From Nannocystis pusilla (GTDB taxonomy: Bacteria > Myxococcota_A > Polyangia > Nannocystales > Nannocystaceae), in NCBI RefSeq assembly GCF_051105105.1, contig NZ_CP185339.1: a DNA stretch of 64,000 bases; one strand, given 5' to 3'. The position numbers were made by a program, and so were the translations under genes. Numbering within the stretch: the stretch's first letter is position 1; every line of letters begins with the position of its first letter. Shown one piece after another: positions 5,635 to 58,330 of this stretch. Under the pieces are notes generated by a model. The model had not been told where the DNA came from. It ran no database searches and saw only the letters and a program-made list of their open reading frames with translations.

Positions 5635-6206
5635 GCGCCGAGGATGTCAGACCCGGCGGGCGACCGCCAGCAGCGCCGCCCGCCGATGCGTCCCATGCAG
5701 GGAACGTCCTCGGCCATGCGCTCGTCGGAGCCATCGCCGAACATCTGCTCGTGGAGCGTCTTGGCCAGGTCGTCGCAGCGCTGCATCGCCACCCAGCGAT
5801 GGGTCACGGTGAGGGCCGCGCCGCGCTCCGGGTCACCTGTCTTCACGGCCAGGCGGGTCGCCAGTGGCGGTCATGGCCAGCAGAGAGACCCAAACGAAGG
5901 AGTCACGCAGGTGCATGCAATTGCTCGCTCGAGCAGTTCGAGGCCGCGTTCTCGGGCCCGCGGGTGTGGATGGGTCCGCTCGATCCGGATTCGTCTCAGG
6001 ACGACCGGCCAGCGCGCGCTCCACGGTGAAGCGCCGGGACCCTCCTGCTTGCGATCCAAAACAGTTCGAACTTTGCTCGCGCGCCTGCCAGGCGCACCCG
6101 AATGCGTTGACGGGGCGAGCGATCTCGCTCAGACTGCCGCCGCATGGGCTCAGGACCGTCCCCACGGAGGGCGACGCGCCGCAATGGCCCGGGCGAGGAG
6201 GATCCC

Positions 6207-8117: not shown

Positions 8118-8984
8118 ATGAGCACTCGCCCCGCCCCCACCTCCGCGACCGCCAAGGTCTGGTTCGTCACCGGCTCGTCCTCCGGCTTCGGCCGCGCCCT
8201 CGTCGAGGAGGTCCTCGCCCGCGGCGACAGCGTCGTCGCCACCGCGCGCCGGCCCGACGCCCTCGCCGACCTGGCCGCCCGCGCCCCCGATCGCGTCCAT
8301 CTCGCCGAGCTCGACATCACCCGCCCCGAGCAGGTGCGCGCCGCCGTCGCCGCCGCCCTGGCCCGCTTCGGCCGCATCGACGTCCTCGTCAACAACGCCG
8401 GCTTTAGCATCCTCGGCGCGCTCGAAGAGACCGACGACGACGCCCTGCGGGCGACGATGGAGCTGATGTTCTTCGCCGCGGTCGCCACCACCCGCGAGGT
8501 CCTGCCGCACATGCGCGCGCGCAAGAGCGGCACGATCGTCCAGATCACCAGCGTCGGCGGCATCACCACCGCGCCCGGGTTCGGGGCCTACTGCGCGGCC
8601 AAGCACGCGCTCGAGGCGGTGTCCGAGAGCCTCGCCGCCGAGGTCGAGCCGCACGGCGTCCGCGTCCTCGTGGTCGAGCCGGGCGCCTTCCGCACCGCCC
8701 TGTTCGGCGCCGCCTTCCGTCACATGCCGGCCATGGACGCCTACGCCGCCACCGTCGGGGCGATGCGCTCGTGGGTGACGCAGACCCATGGCGAACAGGG
8801 CGGCGATCCGGCCAAGGCCGCGCGCGCGATCGTCAACGTCGTCGGCCGCTCCGTCGTCCCGCTGCGCCTCCCGCTCGGCGGCGACGCGGTCGACCAGATC
8901 CGCGCCAAGCTGGCCAAGATCGCCGCAGACGTCGACCAAGCCGAGGCGCTGGCCCGCGCCACCGACTTCGACCCGCAGGCCTGA
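8118..8984 (+). CDS. short-chain dehydrogenase/reductase (SDR) family oxidoreductase
   Basis: VWFVTGSSSGFGRAL (TGxxxGxG), NNAG, YCAAKHALE (YxxxK). RBS AGGAGA precedes the ATG at 8118. Confidence 0.85.
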   Translation: MSTRPAPTSATAKVWFVTGSSSGFGRALVEEVLARGDSVVATARRPDALADLAARAPDRVHLAELDITRPEQVRAAVAAALARFGRIDVLVNNAGFSILGALEETDDDALRATMELMFFAAVATTREVLPHMRARKSGTIVQITSVGGITTAPGFGAYCAAKHALEAVSESLAAEVEPHGVRVLVVEPGAFRTALFGAAFRHMPAMDAYAATVGAMRSWVTQTHGEQGGDPAKAARAIVNVVGRSVVPLRLPLGGDAVDQIRAKLAKIAADVDQAEALARATDFDPQA

Positions 8985-13303: not shown

Positions 13304-13510
13304 TCACAGGTTGCTGTTGTTTTCGGCCTTGTAGCCGAGCTTGCGCTCGATCTCTTCGCGGCGCTCACCCGAGCGCTCCTGAATGATCCCGCACAGCTTG
13401 TCGGCGTTGCCTTCGGCCTTGAGGAAATCGTCGTCGGTCAGGTTCCCCCAGAACTGCTTCGCCTTGCCCTTGAGCTGCTCCCACTTCCCCTGAATTTGAT
13501 CGCGGTTCAT
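13304..13510 (-). CDS. csbD: CsbD-family general stress protein
   Basis: 68 aa: [48 protein letters not shown]...; canonical CsbD pattern. Confidence 0.8.
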
Positions 13511-14012: not shown

Positions 14013-17000
14013 GTGAACCTCACCAGGGACGAGCAGCGCACGTCGCTCACCAAGCGGCTCACCGTCGCGATCGCCACGCCGATCGCGCTCCTGTTGCTGC
14101 TCGGCGTCGTCCTCGGCCGGCAGATCCTCCTGATGGCGGACGACGCCGCCTGGGTCAACCACAGCAACGAGGTCATCTCGCAGGCCAACGCGACGATGCT
14201 CGAGATCGTCGATCAGGAGACCGCGCTGCGCGGCTATCTGCTGTCCGGCGATCGCCAGTACCTGGGGCCCTTCGAGCGGGCGCACCCGGACGGCAAGTTC
14301 GAGCGCCTGCACGAGCTCGTCGCCGACAGCCCCTCGCAGCAGGCTCAGTTCGATCAGGCCCACCAGCACTACCGCGAGTGGTACGCCACCTGCGAGGCCG
14401 CGCTGAGCGGTCACGACCTCGACCAGGCGCGCAGCCCCGCCGCCATGCTCGCGCGCAAGGCCCGGATGGACGCCATCCGCGAGGCCATGGCCGTGGCCAC
14501 CGACATCGAGAAGGACCTGCTGCGCGCCCGCGCCGTCGCCTCGGAGCGCTCCACCGCGATCGCGCGGACCGCCTTCGTCGCGCTGCTCGCCGGCGTCGCC
14601 CTCCTGCTCGCGTTCCTCTCTCGCCGCCAGCTCGCCTCGATCGCCAGCATCTTCGGCACCGCCCTCGACGCCGAGCAGCAGGCCCGCGCCGCGCTCGAGG
14701 CCGAGGCGTGGATCCGCGAGGGTCACACGCGCGTCGCCGAGGTCGTGCAGGGCGAGAAGAGCACCGTGCAGGTCGGCCACGACTGCCTGGCCGCGCTCGC
14801 CGCCCACGCCGGCGCCGACGTCGGCGCCTTCTTCGTGCGTGACGGCGGCGACTGGGTGCGCCGCGTCGGCCTCGCGCTCGACTCGCGGGTCGCCGGGCCG
14901 GAGACGTTCGCCGCCGGCGAGGGCGTCGTCGGCCGCGCCGCTGCCGGCGGCCAGGTCGTCGAGCTGCGCGACGCCGACGAGCTGCCCCTGCGCACCGGCA
15001 CCAGCGAGCGCTTCCCCGCCCACGTGCTCGTCCTGCCCGCGCGCGTCGACGGCGTCACCATCGCCGTGCTCGAGCTCGGCTTCCTCCGCCCGGCCGAGCC
15101 GCGCGTGCGCGCCTTGCTCGAGCGGATCGGCGAGACCGTCGCGCTCGCGGTCCGCAGCTCGGAGCAGAAGGAGCGGCTCGCCGCCCTGCTCGAGGAGACC
15201 CAGCGTCAGGCCGAGGAGCTGCAGACCCAGCAAGAAGAGCTGCGGGTCCAGAACGAGGAGCTCGAGCAGCAGACCCGCGCGCTCGAGGAGTCGCGGGCGC
15301 GCCTCGGCAATCAGCAGGCCGAGCTCGAGCAGATCAACGCCCACCTCGAGGAGCAGACGCAGGCGCTGCAGGCCGAGCGCGACACCCTCACGCAGGCGCA
15401 GATCCAGCTCAAGAGGACCTCGGCCTTCAAGTCCGAGTTCCTCGCCAACATGTCGCACGAGCTGCGCACCCCGCTCAACAGCTCGCTGATCCTCGCGCGC
15501 CTGCTGGCCGACAACCGCCAGGGCAACCTCGACGCCGAGCAGGTCAAGTTCGCCGAGACCATTTACTCGGCCGGCAACGACCTCCTCACCCTCATCAACG
15601 ACATCCTCGACCTGTCGAAGATCGAGGCCGGCATGCTCGAACGTCCGGCCCGAGACCATCTCGCTGGCGCGGGTCACCGACCAGATGATGTCGACCTTCC
15701 GCCCGGTCGCCCGCGACCGGCGGCTCGCCCTCGACCTCAACGTCCAGCGCAACGTCCCGGGCGCGCTGCAGACCGATCCGACGCGGCTGTCGCAGATCCT
15801 GCGCAATCTATTGTCGAACGCGCTCAAGTTCACCGAGAAGGGCGGCGTCAAGCTCACGGTGCGCGCCGCCGGGGCCGGTGTGGTCGCCTTCAACGTCACC
15901 GACACCGGCATCGGCATCCCGCCCGATCAGCAGGAGCTGATCTTCGAGGCGTTCCGCCAGGCCGACGGCACGACCAACCGCAAGTACGGCGGCACCGGCC
16001 TCGGTCTCTCGATCTCACGCGACCTGGCGCGCCTGCTCGGCGGCGAGCTCACCGTCGCCAGCGTCGTCGGCCGCGGCAGCACCTTCACCCTCACGATCCC
16101 CGCGCAGCTCGTCGCGCACGGTTCGGCCCCGGCGCCGACCCTCGCGCCTTTGCCACCTCCGGCGCCGATCCCTCCCTTGCGTCGCCTCCCCGCGCCGCCG
16201 CCCCCGCCCCAGCCGCCGACCGCCGCGCGCTCGATCCTCCTCGTCGAGGACGACCCCACGTTCGCCGGCATCCTCGCCGGCCTCGCCCGCGAGCTCGACT
16301 TCCACCCCCTCCTCGCCGACACCGCCGAGGAGGGCCTGGCGCTCGCGCGTCAGCAGCGGCCGAGCGCCATCGTCCTCGAACGTCTCCCTCCCCGATCGCT
16401 CCGGCCTCAGCGTCCTCGACGCGCTCAAGCACGACCCCGCGACCCGGCACATCCCGGTCCACGTCATCTCCGCCAGCGACCACACGCGCACCGCGCTCGA
16501 GATGGGCGCGGTCGCCTACGCGATAAAGCCCGTCGTCCGCGATCAGCTGGTCGCGGCCCTGCGGCGGCTCGAGTCGAAGGCCACGCAGTCGCTGCGGCGC
16601 GTCCTCGTCGTCGAGGACAACGTCGTCCACCGCGAGAGCACCTGCAAGCTGCTCGCGGCCGACGACGTCGAGACCGTGCCGGTCGGCACCGCCGCCGACG
16701 CGCTCCGCGCGTTGCGCACCACGACCTTCGACTGCATGGTCCTCGACCTCAGCCTGCCCGACAGGTCCGGCTTCGAGCTGCTGCGGGAGATGGCCCAGGG
16801 CGAGCAGTACGGCTTCCCGCCCGTCATCGTCTACACCGGCCGGGCGATCAGCCGCGCCGAGGAGCAGGAGCTCGGGCGCTTCTCGCAGTCCATCATCATC
16901 AAGGGCGCCCGCTCGCCGGAGCGGCTGCTCGACGAGGTCACCCTGTTCCTCCACCAGGTCGAGACCAGCCTCCCGCCCGAGCGGCAGCGCATGCTGCGGG

Positions 17001-17399
17001 ACGCTCGCCACCGCGACGCCGTGTTCGAGGGTCGGCGCGTGCTCGTCGTCGAGGACAACGTCCGCAACGTGTTCGCCTTGACCAGCGTGCTCGAGCCGCG
17101 CGGGGCCAAGGTGGAGATCGCGCGCAACGGCAAGGAGGCGCTGCAGCACCTGAAACTCAAGCCGGGCGTCGACCTGATCCTGATGGACCTCATGATGCCG
17201 GAGATGGACGGCCTCACCGCCACGCGGGCGATCCGCGCCGACCCGGCGACCGCCAAGATCCCGATCATCGCCCTCACCGCCAAGGCCATGGCCGACGATC
17301 GCGCCAGCTGCCTCGCCGCCGGCGCCAACGACTACATCGCCAAGCCGCTCGAACGTCGACAAGCTGCTGTCGCTGGCGCGGGTGTGGATGCCCAAATGA
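14013..17399 (+). CDS. hybrid sensor histidine kinase: TM-CHASE3-TM-GAF-coiled coil(EEL heptads)-HisKA-HATPase-REC-REC-REC; three +1 frameshifts (about 15640, 16380, 17350)
   Basis: GTG start with AAGGAG RBS. CHASE3 signature ([40 protein letters not shown]). GAF domain. H-box [15 protein letters not shown], then (next frame) N/G1/G2 boxes [31 protein letters not shown]. Three receiver domains with DxxxP...D...K patterns continue in successive frames. Each frame change sits at ctcgaACGTC. Confidence 0.75.
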
Positions 17400-18211
17400 C
17401 GACCGCGCCCGACCCCGAGCTGACCGCGCTGCTCGACGCGGTCTACCACCGCTATCACTACGACTTCCGCGGCTACGCCGAGGCCTCGCTGCGCCGGCGG
17501 ATCGGCGCCGCCCTGACCCACCTCCGCTGCCCCACGGTGAACGACCTGCGCGAGCGCGTGCTCGCCGAGCCGCGCGGCTTCAGCGAGCTGCTCCGCTTCC
17601 TCACCGTCCAGGTCAGCGACCTGTTCCGCGACCCCTCGTATTATCGGGCGATCCGCGAGCGCGTCGTGCCGTACCTGCGCACTTATCCCTCGCTCAAGGT
17701 GTGGGTCGCCGGCTGCGCCACCGGCGAGGAGGCCTACTCGCTCGCCATCGTGTTCGCCGAGGAGGGCCTGCTCGACCGCACCCTCATCTACGCCACCGAC
17801 ATCCACCCCGAGAGCCTGCGCGCCGCCGAGGCCGGCGTCTACGACCTCGACCGCTTCGCCCGCTTCTCCGACAGCTACCGGCAGGCCGGCGGGCGCGGCT
17901 CGCTGTCCGACTTCTACACCGCGCAGTACTCGTCGGCGATCCTCGATCGTCGGCTCAAGCAGGCGATCCTGTTCTCCGACCACAGCCTCGCCACCAACGT
18001 CGCCTTCGCCGAGGTCGAGCTGGTGTCGTGCCGCAACGTCCTGATCTACTTCGACCGCCCGCTGCAGGACCGGGCGATCGGCATCTTGCGCGACTCGGTG
18101 CGGCGCAAGGGGTTCCTCGGCCTGGGCGCCAAGGAGACCCTGCGGTTCTCGTCGCACGCCGAGGCGTTCACCGAGCTCGTCCCCGAGGACCGGATCTATC
18201 AACGGCGGTAG
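17396..18211 (+). CDS. cheR: chemotaxis-type protein-glutamate O-methyltransferase CheR
   Basis: CheR N-terminal and SAM-MTase signatures (VWVAGCATGEEAYSLAIV, LVSCRNVLIYFD). Start ATG overlaps the kinase stop (ATGA). Confidence 0.85.
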   Translation: MTTAPDPELTALLDAVYHRYHYDFRGYAEASLRRRIGAALTHLRCPTVNDLRERVLAEPRGFSELLRFLTVQVSDLFRDPSYYRAIRERVVPYLRTYPSLKVWVAGCATGEEAYSLAIVFAEEGLLDRTLIYATDIHPESLRAAEAGVYDLDRFARFSDSYRQAGGRGSLSDFYTAQYSSAILDRRLKQAILFSDHSLATNVAFAEVELVSCRNVLIYFDRPLQDRAIGILRDSVRRKGFLGLGAKETLRFSSHAEAFTELVPEDRIYQRR

Positions 18212-18214
18212 GCC

Positions 18215-18811
18215 ATGGCGACGCGCGACATTCACATGATCGTGATCGGCGGCTCGTCGGGGGCGCTCGACGCTCTCGCCGCCCTGCTGCCGGCGCTGCC
18301 GCCGGGCTATCCGCTGCCGCTGGCCGTGGTCCTGCACCTGCCGCCGACCCAGCCCAGCCACCTCGTCGAGGTCCTGCGGACGAAGGACTCGCTGCCGACG
18401 CGGGAGCCCGACGACAAGGAGCCGATCGTGCCCGGCACGGTCTACGTGGCCCCGCCGAACTACCACCTGCTCGTCGAGCGCGGGCGCAGCTTCGCCCTCT
18501 CGGTCGACGGCCCCGTGCTGTTCTCGCGGCCCTCGATCGACGTGCTGTTCGAGTCGGCCGCCGACGCCTTCGGCCCGCACCTCGCCGGCGTCCTGCTCAG
18601 CGGCGCCAACGAGGACGGCGCCCGCGGCCTCTCGCGCATCGCCGAGGCCGGCGGCCTCACCGTCGTCGAGTCGCCGGCCACCGCCGCGGTCCCGATCATG
18701 CCGGCGGCCGCGCTGCAGCGGGTCGCCATCGACCACGCCGCGCCGGCGGCCGCCATCGGCACCTTGCTCGCGCGGCTCGCCGCGCCCACGCGCTCCGGGG
18801 AGGCGACATGA
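18215..18811 (+). CDS. cheB: protein-glutamate methylesterase CheB catalytic domain (no receiver domain)
   Basis: IVIGGSSGALDAL, PGTVYVAPPNYHLLV, VLLSGANEDGARGL: the CheB methylesterase Ser-His-Asp fold. Only 198 aa, so it lacks the usual N-terminal REC. Confidence 0.8.
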   Translation: MATRDIHMIVIGGSSGALDALAALLPALPPGYPLPLAVVLHLPPTQPSHLVEVLRTKDSLPTREPDDKEPIVPGTVYVAPPNYHLLVERGRSFALSVDGPVLFSRPSIDVLFESAADAFGPHLAGVLLSGANEDGARGLSRIAEAGGLTVVESPATAAVPIMPAAALQRVAIDHAAPAAAIGTLLARLAAPTRSGEAT

Positions 18812-20281
18812 ACCTCGAACCGATCAACTTCCTCCTCGTCGACGACACCGAGCAGAACCTCATCGCCCTCGAGGCGCTCCTGCGGCGCGACGGCCTCAAC
18901 ATCCTCACCGCGCGCAGCGGCTTCGAGGCGCTCGAGCTGCTGCTCGTCCACAACGTCGCCCTGGCGTTCCTCGACGTGCAGATGCCGGGGATGGACGGCT
19001 TCGAGCTGGCCGAATTGATGCGGGGCACCGAGCGCACCAAGAACGTCCCGATCATCTTCATCACCGCCGGCGCGCGCGACAGCGAGCGGGTGTTCCAGGG
19101 CTACGAGTCGGGCGCGGTCGACTTCCTGCACAAGCCGATCGACCCGCGGGTGCTGCGGAGCAAGGCCGACGTGTTCTTCGAGCTGTCGCGGCAGCGCCGC
19201 GACTGCACCCACGCCCTGCGCCTCAACGAGATGTTCGTCGGGATCCTCGGCCACGACCTGCGCACCCCGCTGTCGGCGATCCAGACCGGCACCGAGATCC
19301 TCGAGCAGCTGGTGGAGGACGACGACCAGCGCGGCATCTTGCGGCGCATGTTCGTCTCGAGCCACCGCATGAACGAGATGATCGAGCAGCTGCTCGACCT
19401 GACGCGGGCGCGGCTGGCCGGCGGCCTCGGCTTCGCCCGCGCGCGCGGTCGCGTCAACGTCGTCGAGCTGGTGCAGCGCGCCGTCGACGAGCTGCGCACC
19501 ACCCATTCGCAGCGCGAGGTCCGGGTCGAGACCCTCGGCGACACCGTCACCGCCGGCGATCCCGACCGCCTGGTCCAGGCGCTGTCGAACCTGATCGGCA
19601 ACGCGATCCAGCACGGCCTGCCCGACGGCCCGATCGGGATCCGCGTGTACGAGGACGGGCACCAGATCGCGGTCGAGATCCGCAACCGCGGCGTCATCCC
19701 GGCCGAGGCTCGTGCCGGTGCTGTTCGACCCGTTCCGCGGCCGCGACCACTCGCCGTCGCGCACCAACGCCCGCGGCCTCGGCCTCGGCCTCTACATCGC
19801 CCAGCAGATCGCCCAGGCCCACGGTGGCACCGTCTCGGTGATCTCGAGCGACGAGACCGACACGGTGTTCACGCTCCGCCTGCCGCGCGTCTCGCCCGAG
19901 CCCACGCTCGCCGATCGCCCGCCGCGCGGCCACACGGTGCTGATCGCCGACGACGACGAGGCGACCCGCGAGAGCCTGCGCGAGGCCTTCGCCGGCGAGG
20001 GCTACGCGACCATGACCGCGGCCAACGGGCGCGACGCGCTCGACCAGTTGCTGCACGCGCGGGTCAAGCCCGACCTCGTGATCCTCGACCTGGTGATGCC
20101 GCTGCTCGAGGGCGGGCAGGTCTATCAGGCCATGCAGGCCGTCCCCGAGCTGGCGCGGATCCCCGTGATCGTGTCGACCTCCGATCCGGCCCGCGCCCCC
20201 GCCGGCACGATCCTGATCCCCAAGCCGGTCAAGCTCGGCCGCCTGCTCGACACCGCCGGGCGCCTCGTCCGCTCGCGCTGA
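18808..20281 (+). CDS. hybrid histidine kinase REC-HisKA-HATPase-REC; +1 frameshift near 19705
   Basis: N-terminal receiver (FLLVDDTEQNLIALEALL...FLDVQMPGMDGFEL...GAVDFLHKP). H-box ILGHDLRTPLSAIQ. ATPase boxes LSNLIGNAIQHG and (next frame) GLGLGLYIAQQIAQAHGG. C-terminal receiver (VLIADDDEATRE...LDLVMP). Start overlaps CheB stop (ATGA). Confidence 0.75.
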
Positions 20282-29320: not shown

Positions 29321-30430
29321 CCTGGCACGTTCACGGCAGCTACCTCTACTACCTCACCCAGGCGCCGCACGAGTTCTACCTGCCCGTAAAGCCAGGTCGA
29401 CCCGAGGGCTACGGCGGGCGCAGCGGCAGCTTCGCCTGGGGCGCCAACGTCCACGAGGTCCCGGTGGAGGCCCTCGCGCAGCAGCAGTTCGACGTCGTCC
29501 TGTTCCAGTCGCGCCGCAACTACGAGTGCGACCAATTCGAGGTCCTCGGCGCCGCCCAGCGCCGGCTGCCGCGCGTCTACCTCGAGCACGATCCGCCGCG
29601 CGAGTCGCCGACCGACACCCGCCACCCGGTCGACGACCCCGACGTCTCTGCTCGTCCACGTCACCCCGTTCAACGCCCTGATGTGGGACGCCGGGCGCAC
29701 CCCCGTGCGGGTCGTCGAGCACGGCGTCGTCGTCCCCGACGACGCCGCCTACAGCGGCGAGCTCGCGCGCGGCATCGTCGTCGTCAACGACCTCGCGCGG
29801 CGCGGGCGTCGGCTCGGCCGCGACGTGTTCGACCGCGTGCGCGCCCACGTCCCGCTCGACCTCGCCGGCATGGACTCGGCCGCGCTCGGCGGCCTCGGCG
29901 ACCTGCCGCTGCGCGAGCTCCACGCCCGGCTCGGCCGCTACCGCTTCTTCTTCAACCCGATCCGCTACACCAGCCTCGGCCTGGCGGTGTGCGAGGCGAT
30001 GATGATCGGCCTGCCGATCCTCGGCCTCGCCACCACCGAGATGAGCACCGCCGTGCAGAGCGGCGTCAACGGCTACGTCGAGACCGACCTCGACCGCCTG
30101 CTCGCGCACATGCGGCGCCTGCTCGCCGACCCCGCCGAGGCCGCCGAGCTGGCCGCCGGCGCGCGCCGGATCGCCCGCCAGCGGTTCGGCATCGGCCGCT
30201 TCGCCGCCGATTGGTCGCGGGTCCTGGGCGAGGTCACCGGATGTCCCGAGGGACAGCTCGTCGCGCCGATACCGGGATGTCCCGAGGGACAGCTCGTCGC
30301 GCCCGCCGCCGGATGTCCCGAGGGACAGCTCGTCGCGCCCGCCACCGGATGCCCCGAGGACCAGCTCGTCCCGCCGATCACCACCTGTCCCGCGGGACAG
30401 GCCCCCGAGCCGGCCCGGAGGACCGCGTGA
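29299..30430 (+). CDS. glycosyltransferase family 4 with C-terminal GCPEGQLVAPxx 12-aa tandem repeats; +1 frameshift near 29655
   Basis: GTG start (VRRLRVLTWHVHGSYLYY). GT4 C-terminal domain FFNPIRYTSLGLAVCEAMMIGLPILGLATTEMSTAVQSGVNGYV in ORF 29681..30430. The two ORFs join at gacgtcTctg. Confidence 0.65.
30239..30410 (+). repeat. 36-bp in-frame tandem repeat (x4.5) encoding GCPEGQLVAPxx
   Basis: ggatgtcccgagggacagctcgtcgcgcc repeated with 36-bp period inside the 3' end of the GT4 gene. Confidence 0.8.
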
Positions 30431-45219: not shown

Positions 45220-45810
45220 AGCCCGTGCCGCCATGCCGACGAGACCCCACTCCTTCGCGGCCGTCCGCCCCGCCCGACCGGCCCGTGCCGCAGGCCGCCC
45301 TGATGCCGACGACACCGCGATCCCTCAATTCGCGGCCGCCCGCCCGCCCGACCGGCCCATGCCGCAATGCGAACAGGCGGCCTGATTCCGACGAAGCCCC
45401 AATTCCCTCCATTTGCGGCCGTCCCCCCGCCCGACCCGTGCCGCAATGCGAACAGGCGGCCTTGATGCCGAGCGAACAGGCAGCCCTGACGCCGACGGCG
45501 CGCCGATTCCTCAATCTGCGGCCGGCCACCCGCCCGACGGAGCCGCAATGCGAACAGGCGGCCCTGATGCCGAGCGAACAGGTAGCCCTGATGCCGACGA
45601 CGCGCCGATTCCTCAATCTGCGGCCGGCCACCCGCCCGACCGGAGCCGCCATGCGAACACGCCGCCCTGATACCGACGACGCCGCAATTCGTCAATTCGC
45701 TGCTCCACGGATTGGCGCCCGTCCGCCCCGCCCGCACAACCCTGGCCGCAATGCGAACAACCGCCTTGACGAGACGGCGCCGCGATTCGCGGCCGGCCGC
45801 CCGCGCGGCC
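45220..45810. repeat. tandem repeat array 1 (~100-110 bp units, 24-bp sub-repeats gcgaacagg(c/t)rgccctgatgccga), core CGCAATGCGA
   Basis: About 5 imperfect units, each containing cgccgattcctcaatctgcggccggccacccgcccgac and gccgcaatgcgaacaggcggccctgatgccgagcgaacagg. Confidence 0.8.
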
Positions 45811-47829: not shown

Positions 47830-48530
47830 GCCTGCTCGCATTGTCCGGCCGCCTGCTCGCATTGCCGGCGGCCGACTCGCATTGCGCGGTCGCTCGTGAG
47901 CGGTGAAATCCCGACCGCCTGCTCGCATTGCCGGGCTGCCGCATGGCCTGGCCGCTTGCTCACGTTGCGCAGGCCCTCGCCCGCGAGGCGCGGCCCGGCC
48001 GCTTGCTCACGTTGCGCAGGCCCTCGCCCGCGAGGCGCGGCCTGGCCGCCCGCATTGCGCAATCGCTCGTCCGTGATGCGAGCTTGGCCGCCCGCATTGC
48101 GCAATCGCTCATCAGCGATGCGAGCCTGGCCGCTCGCTCGCATTGCGCAGTCCCTCGCCCGCGGCCCCCGCTCGCATTGCGCAGTCCCTCGCCCGCGATG
48201 CGAGCCGGCCCCCTCGCATTGCGCAGTCGCTCGTCCGCGATGCGAGCCCGGCCGCCCCCTCGCATCGCGCAGTCCCTCGCCCGCGATGCGAGCCCGGCCG
48301 CCCCCTCGCATTGCGCAGACGCTCGCCCGCGATGCGAGCTCGGCCACCCCCTCGCATTGCGCAGTCGCTCGTCCGCGATGCGGCCTGGCCGCCCGCTCGC
48401 ATCGCGCAGTCCCTCGCCCGCGATGCGAGCCCGGCCGCCCCCTCGCATCGCGCAGTCCCTCGCCCGCGATGCGAGCTCGGCCGCCCCCTCGCATCGCCTG
48501 GCCGCCCGCTCGACGCCCGCCCAATCGCCG
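47830..48530. repeat. tandem repeat array 2 (~47-bp units x ~14) with internal imperfect hairpin CTCGCATTGCG...CGCGATGCGAG; inverted relative to array 1
   Basis: Unit ctcgcattgcgcagtccctcgcccgcgatgcgagcccggccgccccc. Both the hairpin-forming part and the spacer-like part are conserved. Confidence 0.85.
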
Positions 48531-49345: not shown

Positions 49346-49531
49346 GATTCGTGCCAGCGGACTGGACCGCTGCATGCAATCGTCCCGCGAGCGCATCACG
49401 CGCTCGCGGTCGACGGCAGACACGACATTGACTGACGAAAGTGTAAACCGGATCACAAATCCGGCGCCTCATTCGCATTGTTCACGATTTGGCTTGCCCA
49501 GGGCCCGCGAGGATGAACTATAAGCGTCACC

Positions 49532-50587
49532 TTGACGAGAGCAAACCCCACGGCCTCACGCGACATCGTCGTGATGGGGGCGTCCGCCGGCGGCCTCACC
49601 GCGTTGTTCGACATCGTGCGGGGGCTGCCGCGCGACTTCCCGGCCGCGGTGTTCGTGGCGATGCACATGTCACCGGACAACCCGGGCGTGCTGTCGGACC
49701 TGCTGGGGCGCGTCGCCGCCTTGCCGACCGCGCTGGCTGAAGATCGTCAGGCGATCGAGCGCGGCCGGATCTACATCGCCCGCCCCGATCACCACCTGCT
49801 GATCAAGCGGGCCCACGTGCGGGTCACTCGCGGCCCCAAGGAGAACGGGTTCCGCCCCGCGGTCGACCCGTTGTTCCGCAGCGCCGCGCTGGCCTACGGC
49901 GCGCGCGTCATCGGCGTCGTCCTCTCGGGCGGCCTCAACGACGGCACCGAGGGCCTGCTGCGGATCACCGAGGCGGGCGGCCTGGCGATCGCCCAGGACC
50001 CGGCCGAGGCCACCATCCCCAGCATGCCGCTCAGCGCCATCCAGAACGTCGAGGTCCACAGCGTGCTGAAGGCCGCCGCGATCCCCGAGGTGCTGAGCCA
50101 GCTGGTCGTGCAATCCGTGGACGACCCCAACGCGCTCGGCGCCCCCGAGGTCGAGGACACCGCCGAGACCGGGCGCGCCCTTCAGCAGAGCCAGCCGGTC
50201 GGCGCCCGCTCGCCGTACACCTGCCCCGAATGCGGCGGCGCGCTGTGGGAGCTGGCGGAGCACGACAAGCTGCTGAAGTTCCGCTGTCACGTCGGCCACG
50301 GCTTCACCGCCGAGGCGCTGCTGGCCGAGCAGGGCGCCAAGCTCGAGGGCGCGCTGTGGGGCGCCCTGCGGGCCCTCGAGGAGAACGCCGCCCTGTACCG
50401 CCAGCAAGCGGAGCGCACCGGCTCGGCCGGCTACCTCGCGCTGTCGCTACAGTACGGCAAGAGCGCCGCCGAGATCGAGGAGTACGCCAGCACCCTGCGG
50501 CCGCTGCTGCACCGGACCTCCGTGCAGTTGACCCCGCCCGCTCCGACTGCGCCGCCGCCCGAACCACCGGAAGGGATTGAGGACTGA
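49532..50587 (+). CDS. cheB: CheB-type methylesterase domain protein with C-terminal zinc-ribbon-like extension (no receiver domain)
   Basis: IVVMGASAGGLTALFDIV, IYIARPDHHLLI, VVLSGGLNDGTEGL. C-terminal YTCPECGGALWE...FRCHVGHGF. Confidence 0.75.
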   Translation: MTRANPTASRDIVVMGASAGGLTALFDIVRGLPRDFPAAVFVAMHMSPDNPGVLSDLLGRVAALPTALAEDRQAIERGRIYIARPDHHLLIKRAHVRVTRGPKENGFRPAVDPLFRSAALAYGARVIGVVLSGGLNDGTEGLLRITEAGGLAIAQDPAEATIPSMPLSAIQNVEVHSVLKAAAIPEVLSQLVVQSVDDPNALGAPEVEDTAETGRALQQSQPVGARSPYTCPECGGALWELAEHDKLLKFRCHVGHGFTAEALLAEQGAKLEGALWGALRALEENAALYRQQAERTGSAGYLALSLQYGKSAAEIEEYASTLRPLLHRTSVQLTPPAPTAPPPEPPEGIED

Positions 50588-50638
50588 CCGGCCCTCTCGT
50601 CGCCGGCTCGGCCGCTCGATTACGCTGTACCTGTCATC

Positions 50639-55258
<4,620 letters not shown>

Positions 55259-55415
55259 CCGTCACGACGGCATCCGCGTCGAGCTGCACATCCCGCTCGC
55301 CGACGGCGGACCGTCACGACGGCATCCGCGTCGCGCTGCACATCCCGCGCGCCGAGAGCGGACCGTCACGACGGCACGCGGCGAGCTGCACATCGCCCTC
55401 GCCGAGGGCGGCTCG

Positions 55416-56057
55416 TCAGTCGCGCTTGCGCAGCGGCGCCAGCCCGTGCTCGAGCGCGTAGCGGGTCATCGCCGCCCGCGAGCGCAGCCCGAGCTGCTGG
55501 GAGATCCGCGCCTTGTGGAACTCGACCGTCTTGAGCGCGATGCCGAGGTCGCCGGCGATCTCCTTGCCCGCCATGCCGGAGGCGACGCGGACCAGGATCT
55601 CGCGCTGACGCGTGGTGAGCAGGTTGCCCCCGCGCCGCCGCGGCGCCGTCTCGCTCGTCCCCTTGAGCAGCGCCTCGATCGGCGGGCTGACGTGGCTGCC
55701 GCCGGCGGCGACCGTGCGCACCCCGGCGACCAGCTCCTCGGGCGACGCGTCCTTGAGCACGTACCCGCGGGCCCCCGCGGCCAGGGCCGAGTGGGCCCAC
55801 TGCGGATCGGCGTGGCGAGTGACGACGACCGCGCGGGTCGCCGAGCTCGTCTGCAGCGCGCGCAGCAGATCGAGCCCGCCCAGCGTCGGCAGCTCGAGCT
55901 CGAGCGCCACCACGTCGGGCTGCAGCTCACGCGCGGCCGCCAGCGCCTTCGCGCCGTCGGTGAACGCCCCGACGACCTCGAACTCGACGCCGAGCAGGAC
56001 GCTCAGGCACTCGAGCACCATCGCCTGGTCGTCGACGAGGATCACCCGCGGTCGCAT
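55416..56057 (-). CDS. NarL/FixJ-family response regulator (REC + LuxR HTH)
   Basis: Start at internal Met (MRPRVILVDDQ). REC motifs (VVALELELPTLGG, RGYVLKD). C-terminal LTTRQREILVRVASGMAGKEIAGDLGIALKTVEFHKARI. Confidence 0.8.
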   Translation of the reverse strand: MRPRVILVDDQAMVLECLSVLLGVEFEVVGAFTDGAKALAAARELQPDVVALELELPTLGGLDLLRALQTSSATRAVVVTRHADPQWAHSALAAGARGYVLKDASPEELVAGVRTVAAGGSHVSPPIEALLKGTSETAPRRRGGNLLTTRQREILVRVASGMAGKEIAGDLGIALKTVEFHKARISQQLGLRSRAAMTRYALEHGLAPLRKRD

Positions 56058-56819: not shown

Positions 56820-57949
56820 CCCCAGCTCCGAAAGCGTCGCCGTCCCCGACGCTAACAAACACCTCGAAGACGTTCAGCCCGGAAAAACCCCTGACCCCGA
56901 GCTCGCCTCGTGGACGGGCTCGGTCGTGCGGCTCGCCCGCCCCGCAGGCGAGGCGCGCACTACAGTTCGGTGACGACGCATCGTCGACATCAGGCTCGGC
57001 GTCGACCGCCACCGAGCGCCCGCGCAGCCCGCATGCACCGCTCTCGTGATCGCGGGCGGACGACGCACCGACTGGGGCCTCGCCGGACTCCCGCTCATCC
57101 TCGAACCCGTCGACGATGCGGAGAGCCCCGCCGCGGGCGCCAGGGGTGAGCACAAACGTTTTTTCGCCGCCGACGCCGCTCGCGCCCGGCGGTCTCGGCC
57201 CATCGATCGAGGAGGCGCCCAATTCGCCTGACTCACAGGCGACCGCGCCGCCCCCGGAATTCTCCGGGGAGACCGTCCTGCGCGGACTCGACACGATGGG
57301 CCGCGGCCCGTGAGCCGAATGGACATTCGCCACGCCGGCCCGCTCGCGGGCCTTGCGCCGATTTTCCCGGCTCGTGTCCGGTCCCTGCAGCCTGTGGGGC
57401 CGTATTGCGGTAGCGATTTCGCGCATCGTCGACCGGCCAACCTTGGTCGAGCCGGCCGGGGCGGCAACCGCTCCGCGCCGTACGAAAGAGGGAATACGCG
57501 GCGCTCTTCGTCGGCGGAGATTAGAGTTGGAGCATGGATCACAGCCTCGCATTCCCGGGGTTCTTCCCAGATGTGGCGCGATTCGCGGCGGCGAGGCGAG
57601 CGCACCGACGCCCGCGGCTCGAGCGTGCCGCGGAGCGATTGCTCCGAGTCCGCGGCCGGCCTGTATCTCTGAAATCACCGCCGCCTTGCACCCCGGGCGC
57701 CCTCTCCCAAGATTGCGCCGCAGTCGTCGGCCTCGCGAGCTCACGGGATTATGCGCACCCGCTGCGGAGCGAGCAGGCGCAGGCCGACGACTGCAAGCGG
57801 CGGAATTCGCCGCGACTGCCGACGTCATCGCCTCGTCTCGCTCCTCGGCCGCCGAACGACCGGCCATCCTCGACCTGCTCGAAAGACCAGGTAAGAGCGC
57901 GCCGCTCCTGGCCCGCGGCCCTGAAGACGCCGACCTTCGGTTCCTGTCG

Positions 57950-58330
57950 CGAAGAGCCCCGCTCTCCTCCGCCCGCCGGGCAACATCACTGTCCGCGGAG
58001 AGCTCCGCCCTTCGCCCGTCAGGAAACATCACAGTCCGCGAAGGACCCCGCCCTCCCTCCTGCGCCGCACTCCTCCGCCCGCCAGGAAACATCACGGTCC
58101 GCAAAAAGCCCCGCCCTCCCTCCTGCGCCGCACTCCTCACGCCCGTCGGGAAACATCGCTGTCCGTGAAGAGCCCCGCCCTCCTCCTCCGCCCGCCGGGA
58201 AACATCCCTGTCCGCCGAGAGCCCCACGCTCTCTGCTTCGCCCGCCGGGAAACATCCCTGTCCGCGCAGGACCCCGCCTCCCTCCTTCGCCGCTCTCCTC
58301 CGCCCGCCGGGCCGAAGCCAGCCTCGTCGC
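57950..58330. repeat. tandem repeat array 3 (~57-bp units x ~6), core CCGCCCGCCGGGAAACATCCCTGTCCGC
   Basis: Units separated by gagccccgccctccctcctgcgccgcactcct. Contains short palindrome GGGAaacaTCCC. Confidence 0.8.

Follow-up and report, generated by a model that had tools for sequence, protein, structure and literature searches.

In the 64-kb stretch of Nannocystis pusilla DNA analysed here (contig NZ_CP185339.1; hereafter the window), four consecutive genes encode a hybrid histidine kinase (HK1), a CheR-type methyltransferase, a CheB-type methylesterase and a second hybrid kinase (HK2). Sequence comparisons suggest that CheR and CheB probably tune the stress-sensing kinase HK1 by methylating its coiled-coil stalk, and not by modifying a methyl-accepting chemotaxis protein (MCP). 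This reading is best supported because the four-gene cassette is conserved and comes without MCP, CheA or CheW, because the E-E-L coiled coil is conserved to the same degree as CheR and CheB, because acidic heptads separate cheR-adjacent kinases from other kinases, and because methylation of a kinase helix has an experimental precedent in RsbM/RsbK (PMC4574943). A preliminary description of this region had presented direct methylation control of sensor kinases as a recurring design of this organism. The mechanism it named is still the best-supported one, but it is no peculiarity of this organism, as the cassette occurs in more than ten phyla. Nor is the idea new, since the mechanism has been published for Bacillus cereus RsbK/RsbM; the operon extends that mechanism to a known, widely conserved cassette and is a further example of an established design.

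The four genes are best explained as a single operon for a two-component module that is self-contained and brings its own pair of covalent-modification enzymes. Mechanical lists of open reading frames (ORFs) are noisy because the window is 72% G+C, and Pfam domains were called on frame-corrected translations, from which four extra bases (see below) had been removed. After this correction the gene order described previously, CHASE3-GAF-HK-REC3, cheR, receiver-less cheB and REC-HK-REC, holds. The kinase genes had been taken to be intact; the four frameshifts, which break both HK1 and HK2 in the raw sequence, had been overlooked. HK1 starts with GTG at 14013, with AAGGAG 7 nt upstream, and stops with TGA at 17397-17399. 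Its HisKA (aa 473-540) and HATPase (aa 587-698) domains are followed by the three REC domains, and Pfam detected no HAMP domain between the second transmembrane segment and GAF. The Ser, His and Asp motifs of CheB (GGSSGA, LHLP and NEDG) are intact, the motifs of CheR that bind S-adenosylmethionine (SAM) and form the active site are invariant in homologues, and HK2 has no acidic heptads. Of the ATGA overlaps earlier thought to couple all four genes, those at 17396 (HK1/cheR, present in the corrected frame only) and 18808 (cheB/HK2) exist; the cheR/cheB junction reads TAG-gcc-ATG, a 3-nt gap without overlap. None of the four proteins could be assigned to a specific NCBIfam family, a sigma-70 promoter scan upstream of HK1 gave no match, and exact-sequence look-up of the window CheR and its N. 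bainbridge homologue returned no record.

The linker joining the sensor part of HK1 to its kinase core appears to be a continuous heptad-periodic helix that runs into the dimerization and histidine phosphotransfer (DHp) domain and, as modeled, has the character of a signalling helix (S-helix). In a single-sequence AlphaFold2 (AF2) model of aa 250-542, one helix spans aa 363-501, the predicted local distance difference test (pLDDT) score being 94-97 over residues 389-459; the H-box His is residue 482. The E-E-L heptads reported just upstream of HisKA are present, at aa 400-452. Glu pairs at 394/395, 401/402, 408/409 and 415/416 are spaced by exactly 7 residues, with further pairs at 425/426 and 446/447. 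Leu recurs at every seventh residue from 403 to 452, giving eight heptads with no stutter across 66 orthologues. Taken together, the sequence pattern and the AF2 model give a register with Leu at every d position, a polar Gln/Asn layer at a and Glu-Glu at b/c. The pairs, two positions before each Leu, would thus occupy the exposed b and c positions. Among the 66 orthologues, the second Glu of the pair is nearly invariant (E402 in 59, E409 in 64, E416 in 59, E437 in 63 and E447 in 59), and the first is more variable (50-56). The polar residue four after each Leu is conserved as well: N414 in 65/66, N442 in 66/66, Q407 and Q435 in 54/66. The proposal had been made to depend on heptad conservation in orthologues, and both the second Glu and the uninterrupted Leu series bear it out.

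Homologues of the window CheR number more than 8000, many of them 70-79% identical, and one genome per species scanned with a CheR alignment yielded 80 loci. By sequence comparison the four-gene signalling cassette is ancient and widely conserved, not peculiar to N. pusilla: its loci span more than ten phyla and include representatives of Planctomycetota, Acidobacteriota, Burkholderiales, Pseudomonas, Sphingomonas, Caulobacterales, Verrucomicrobiota, Bacteroidota, Cyanobacteria, Deinococcus, Gemmatimonadota, Desulfobacterota and Myxococcota. Where the loci had enough flanking DNA to count genes, a coiled-coil kinase lies upstream of cheR in 63/68, cheB lies downstream in 65/70 and an HK2-like gene is present in 62/70; all four genes occur together in 50 loci. 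Compared with the window proteins, median identity reaches 51% in the coiled coil, 50% in CheR, 49% in CheB and 61% in the kinase core, but only 31% in GAF and 28% in CHASE3. At the sequence level, the coiled coil is therefore as conserved as the two enzymes and far more so than the sensor domains. The heptads also discriminate between kinases. Two or more [EQ]E[LIM] triplets stand in register ahead of the H-box in 67 of the 68 cheR-adjacent kinases, versus none of the 73 others among 141 H-box kinases. A strict three-heptad pattern was found once per locus, always in the cheR-adjacent kinase. In the window it occurs twice, in HK1 and in a CheB-CheR fusion protein (CheBR, see below), each adjoining or fused to CheR/CheB. 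A profile-free search with the 92-aa coiled coil against 1.84 billion representative proteins gave 596 matches at E<=1e-3. The long coiled-coil matches were GAF kinases in 47 of 49 cases, 23 of the 49 carried CHASE3 and none was fused to CheR or CheB; cluster look-up of the representative kinases returned generic names only.

We then asked whether cheR and cheB could instead serve a conventional chemosensory pathway, with its genes for MCP, CheA and CheW located immediately beyond the window. What speaks for this is that the evidence covers the window only and that myxobacteria carry many Che clusters; nonetheless, we regard it as very improbable. In agreement with the preliminary description, tblastn with fragments of E. 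coli Tsr, CheW and CheA detected no MCP, CheW or CheA in the window, which extends beyond the cluster by ~14 kb on the upstream and 43 kb on the downstream side; the MCPs found in loci L006 and L047 served as positive control. No MCP lies within 8-10 kb in 79/81 loci, both MCP matches being on the opposite strand, and neither MCP, CheA nor CheW occurs within 10 kb of the syntenic locus of N. pusilla or of that on a 5.6-Mb contig of a metagenome-assembled genome (MAG). The genes closest to the cluster on either side are unrelated, and some are transcribed from the opposite strand. Encoded in the flanks are a thrombospondin-repeat protein, a CsbD-like protein, an inorganic pyrophosphatase, a zinc-dependent alcohol dehydrogenase, a GAF kinase without heptads and a short-chain dehydrogenase/reductase. 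A canonical Che cluster would combine MCP, CheA and CheW with a CheB that bears an N-terminal receiver, which CheA would phosphorylate, and with a CheR above the equivalog score. Here the first three are missing, CheB has no receiver, and CheR scores 55 bits, below the NCBIfam cut-off of 435 for the chemotaxis CheR equivalog.

Experimental precedent comes from B. cereus RsbK, a kinase with the architecture CHASE3-HAMP-GAF-S-helix-HK-CA-REC. The adjacent CheR-type protein RsbM methylates its signalling helix, immediately ahead of the H-box, in vitro, as seen with labelled SAM, and this methylation represses signalling and keeps the pathway off (PMC4574943). RsbK-like kinases number 127 in 10 phyla, RsbM has no partner esterase and the RsbK H-box His is H505 (PMC4574943). 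HK1 and cheR resemble this pair in that the gene of a hybrid kinase, composed of CHASE3, GAF, helix, HisKA, HATPase and REC, is followed directly, in the same operon, by a CheR-type gene; the likeness to RsbK (WP_002197482.1) is one of published architecture. The two systems also differ. RsbK has a HAMP domain and one REC domain, whereas HK1 has no detectable HAMP and three REC domains. RsbM is an orphan without an esterase, whereas the HK1 operon includes cheB beside cheR, which implies that modification would be reversible, unlike in RsbK/RsbM. The output of RsbK runs through RsbY (PP2C) and sigma-B; neither REC-PP2C nor sigma-B partner-switching genes were found in the HK1 flanks or the window. 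The methylated residues of RsbK are reportedly E439 and E446. Assuming no indels, these would fall at the heptad position of HK1 E416 and in the next heptad, which we treat as a lead and not as evidence.

A second known system is the cfcABCDE cluster of Pseudomonas putida KT2440, whose products are the CHASE3/GAF hybrid kinase CfcA, CheR and CheB as a pair, and the REC-containing CfcD (PMC4951495, PMC6849547). CfcA (PP_3761) is an active kinase and activates the diguanylate cyclase CfcR (PMC4951495, PMC6849547). The cfcB/cfcC (CheR3/CheB3) pair is described as having no role in chemotaxis in a passage of PMC4951495 that cites Garcia-Fontana 2013, and passages of PMC4951495 and of PMC10950880 (citing Tagua 2022) link CfcA and other CHASE3 kinases to salt or stress sensing. 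In the P. putida locus analysed here, L036, the genes for the kinase, CheR, receiver-less CheB and REC-kinase follow one another as in the window; it is 53% identical to the window in CheR, 51% in CheB, 67% in the kinase core and 52% in the coiled coil, which carries the same EELQVQQEELKxANEELEEQ block. L036 looks like the published cfcABCDE cluster by sequence. Its kinase can only be presumed to be PP_3761 because the strain is other than KT2440; the His lies at 506 counted from the first ATG, versus 496 in published CfcA. The CfcD-type HK2 of Pseudomonas has no C-terminal REC domain, whereas the window HK2 does. No GGDEF motif that might mark a CfcR-like output was found in the window, and CfcR is unlinked in KT2440 too. 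The cfc literature searched contained no report of CfcA methylation. The Caulobacter Hmr pathway, considered as another related system, turned out to be unrelated.

Several points weigh against direct methylation of HK1. Methyl-acceptor sites of MCPs follow the consensus [ASTG][ASTG]xx[EQ][EQ]xx[ASTG][ASTG], whose C-terminal half is [EQ][EQ]xx[ASTG][ASTG]. Neither the full nor the half consensus is matched in the HK1 coiled coil (0 each), so that the HK1 heptads, once called methyl-acceptor-like, do not qualify as such by this measure, and recognition would have to differ from that of chemotaxis CheR; half-consensus matches are likewise absent from 42/69 orthologue coiled-coil segments. The contrast of 67 versus 0 does not represent 67 independent events, because it stems largely from one orthologous family. 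The cheR orthologues of loci L002, L044, L046, L069 and L071 lack the upstream CHASE3-GAF kinase; L044 and L046 retain cheB and the HK2-like gene, and the Nostoc loci L069 and L071 are orphan cheR genes. According to unpublished results mentioned in PMC4951495, other cfc mutants kept the CfcA-dependent phenotype. Methylation of HK1 in this subfamily is argued from sequence and analogy, and if the frameshifts were real, the locus would be inactive in this strain.

Some of these points, namely the missing MCP consensus and the cheR-cheB-HK2 loci L044 and L046 without an HK1-type kinase, would fit an alternative in which the EE-L heptads are kept as a mechanical signalling helix only and CheR/CheB act on HK2, on a REC domain or on MCPs elsewhere in the genome. 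Kinases often have long heptad linkers ahead of DHp, and the polar a layer and the Leu d layer are conserved as much as the Glu pairs. We nevertheless consider this alternative unlikely. HK2 offers no acidic heptads, MCPs are absent from the neighbourhood of nearly all loci, CheR scores far under the chemotaxis equivalog cut-off, and the P. putida orthologue is described, in the passage noted above, as having no chemotaxis role. Moreover, the equivalent helix of RsbK is methylated by RsbM (PMC4574943).

The module that we favor, in which CheR and CheB act on HK1, shares with MCP adaptation the Glu pairs 7 residues apart, exposed on a long coiled coil with the second residue most conserved, and the CheR- and CheB-family enzymes encoded alongside. 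It differs from MCP adaptation in that the proposed substrate is a histidine kinase, there is no CheA/CheW and HK1 does not have the small-residue part of the consensus; a CheB without a receiver implies that there is no CheA-driven feedback. Judging from the characterized relatives CfcA and RsbK, the CHASE3 domain of the membrane kinase HK1 may sense an envelope or ionic-strength type of signal, and GAF may take a cytoplasmic input. The signal would run through the ~90-residue continuous dimeric coiled coil into DHp and the H-box. Co-transcribed CheR would methylate glutamates of the pairs, most likely the second Glu (E402, E409, E416, E437 and E447), and receiver-less CheB would strip the methyl groups and might deamidate neighbouring Gln. 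Neutralized charge on a marginally stable helix would move the balance between kinase and phosphatase activity, or change how the HK1 REC domains dock. The outcome would be gain setting or output adaptation, as known from chemoreceptors and demonstrated for RsbK. Phosphoryl groups probably pass to HK2's N-terminal REC domain, making the two kinases tiers of one pathway, and then to an output regulator encoded elsewhere.

In our judgement, the chances are evenly balanced that CheR and receiver-less CheB constitute a complete reversible methylation-adaptation system acting on a histidine kinase signalling helix, with the second Glu as acceptor, in a fixed cassette shared by more than ten phyla. 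If so, chemotaxis-style sensory adaptation would be widespread in ordinary two-component signalling, and reversible tuning would be a general property of a very widespread stress-sensing module, hosted by Pseudomonas, Sphingomonas, Burkholderiales, cyanobacteria, Bacteroidota, Deinococcus and myxobacteria, rather than a chemoreceptor speciality. The only case tested so far, RsbK/RsbM, has a methyltransferase and no esterase, and the possibility that the added CheB makes the module reversible and adaptation-like is of moderate interest. The conservation map singles out E402, E409, E416, E437 and E447, and P. putida cfcABCDE would be a tractable model.

The window contains a second CheB/CheR locus, at 49526-55258, which consists of three coupled genes (Table 1). 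The preliminary description had placed NEELQS heptads, 35 kb away from the cluster, in a kinase; they sit at aa 674-760 of the CheB-CheR-PAS fusion protein CheBR, directly after its CheR domain, and the kinase is a separate downstream gene. The CheBR gene carries one extra base at 51930. The CheBR coiled coil (NEELQST and variants) has 6-7 half-consensus matches (EExx[ST][ST]), versus 0 in HK1. That the HK1 heptads closely mirror those of CheBR was a generous wording: the EEL triplet is common to both and is the main shared feature, but the coiled coils are only 28-40% identical (E 5e-5 with composition correction). By sequence, HK1 and CheBR are different families that have the EEL theme in common and do not carry duplicates of a single segment. 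The CheBR CheR domain is 27% identical to the cluster CheR, a distance that implies two independent associations of CheR with an EEL coiled coil. Of the claim that two loci pair CheR/CheB with heptad-bearing kinases, the HK1 locus and the independence of the CheR lineages stand, but at the second locus the heptads belong to CheBR. The CheBR family is very common and is labelled 'two-component system, chemotaxis family, CheB/CheR fusion protein' by JGI. The window CheBR is thus a member of the CheB/CheR fusion proteins with PAS_10, with heptads in an enzyme-bearing protein, unlike those of HK1, which are in the kinase. At the DNA level, the CheBR coiled coil is also seen as a 21-nt tandem repeat of ~8 copies (52729-52903). 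Just upstream of the locus, an intergenic array at 47965-48497 holds ~12 copies of a 46-bp unit, each with an inverted repeat (TCGCATCGCG...CGCGATGCGA) and resembling repetitive extragenic palindromic elements. At 55215-55418, ~4 copies of a 52-bp tandem unit start in, and repeat, the last codons of the PAS-HisKA_3 kinase gene.

In the raw sequence, read in three frames, neither HK1 nor HK2 is a continuous ORF. HK1 follows the frame path 0>1>2>0, with switches at ~15640, ~16379 and ~17352 and the last 15 codons in frame 0. All three switches lie inside the identical 10-mer CTCGAACGTC, which becomes CTC-GAC-GTC (L-D-V) once the extra base is removed. The extra bases are most likely systematic (long-read) consensus errors, rather than decay or recoding, because the N. 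pusilla orthologues are intact. The nearest relatives of the window CheR are from Nannocystis (88% and 86% identical), and the syntenic N. pusilla locus L082 encodes an intact 1119-aa HK1, cheR, cheB and an intact 489-aa HK2. In a DNA alignment (82% identity), this locus is shorter than the window by precisely one base at all four sites. In another relative, a metagenome-assembled genome (L001), the HK1 orthologue is annotated as a pair of overlapping genes (756 aa and 417 aa; 8751-8806), which suggests that this assembly also has a frameshift, not at the GAACGTC motif.

The three frame changes in raw HK1 and the one in HK2 could be taken at face value, as a decaying pseudogene array in which neither kinase is made in this strain. 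This is hardly credible given the intact orthologues and the fact that codon bias (G+C at third codon positions 0.95-1.0) and protein similarity continue undiminished past each shift. In addition, the three shifts in HK1 add up to +3 and bring back the ATGA overlap. Window-wide, few motifs are involved, every clear shift is +1 and none is -1, and the shifts break well-conserved, unrelated genes on both strands. TCGA[A]CGTC or its reverse complement coincides with a +1 shift in 6/6 window copies, GG[A]ACGTC in 2/2, and CCGAG[G]CTC or its reverse complement in 4/5. Insertion sites were noted at 5701, 10305, 15637, 16376, 17349, 19703, 25616, 32597, 33493, 37000, 47757 and 51928. Programmed +1 ribosomal frameshifting at CTC-GAA-CGT-C was rejected because the motif also shifts the frame when reverse-complemented (37000, in a plus-strand gene) and in a minus-strand gene (5702), and because a second, unrelated motif behaves alike. 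Consensus error falls short of proof, since the parent motifs also occur in unmodified form. A methylation-motif miscall at every parent-motif copy is unsupported, as many unmodified TCGACGTC, GACGTCGA and CCGAGCTC copies remain, and the consensus-error reading does not account for the motif specificity of the insertions. An apparent +1 frame change was also observed near 1750 in a Ser/Thr protein kinase gene (2-1750) that has a long Pro/Ser/Thr-rich tail and runs off the left end of the window.

Table 1. Positions of the features discussed in the text (numbering of the 64-kb window)
Feature	Position	Strand	Details	Basis
HK1	14013..17399	+	1127 aa corrected; CHASE3-GAF-coiled coil-HisKA-HATPase-REC x3	Pfam
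HK1 CHASE3, periplasmic sensor	14145..14531	+	aa 45-173; E 2.5e-25; hydrophobic segment each side	Pfam
HK1 GAF	14781..15152	+	aa 257-380; GAF_2, E 4e-7	Pfam
HK1 coiled coil, signalling-helix-like stalk	15153..15422	+	aa 381-470; joins GAF to DHp helix	
HK1 E-E-L heptad block	15192..15353	+	aa 394-447; candidate acceptors E402, E409, E416, E437, E447	
HK1 extra base 1	15640	+	CTCGA[A]CGTC, frame 0>1; one base fewer in N. pusilla L082	
HK1 extra base 2	16379	+	10-mer CTCGAACGTC, frame 1>2; at REC1 phospho-acceptor L-D-V	
HK1 extra base 3	17352	+	10-mer CTCGAACGTC, frame 2>0; restores frame ending in ATGA overlap	
cheR	17396..18211	+	271 aa; CheR_N + CheR; CheR-family SAM-dependent methyltransferase	Pfam
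cheB	18215..18811	+	198 aa; CheB_methylest domain alone, no receiver	Pfam
HK2	18808..20281	+	490 aa corrected; REC-HisKA-HATPase-REC	Pfam
HK2 extra base	~19708	+	CCGAG[G]CTC (inside GAGGCTC), frame 1>2	
CsbD-like general-stress protein	13307-13510	-	68 aa; E 1.8e-18; divergent, ~500 bp upstream of HK1	Pfam
Stand-alone CheB-type methylesterase	49526..50587	+	C-terminal Cys-rich extension; upstream of CheBR gene	Pfam
CheBR fusion	50639..53666	+	1008 aa; CheB-CheR-coiled coil-PAS_10-PAS_4	
Separate kinase	53663..55258	+	PAS-PAS-HisKA_3-HATPase; GTGA overlap with CheBR gene	

The CsbD-like gene, which is followed by a strong hairpin terminator (13266-13229), was considered as a link to a stress regulon. 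It occupies the same place in just one other locus (L049) and therefore does not represent a conserved link. Further repeats in the window include tandem arrays at 45250-45676 and 57944-58291, with units of 83-102 bp and 43-63 bp. A glycosyltransferase-like ORF ends in peptide repeats of the GCPEGQLVAP type, encoded by ~4.6 copies of a 36-bp in-frame tandem repeat (30235-30400).

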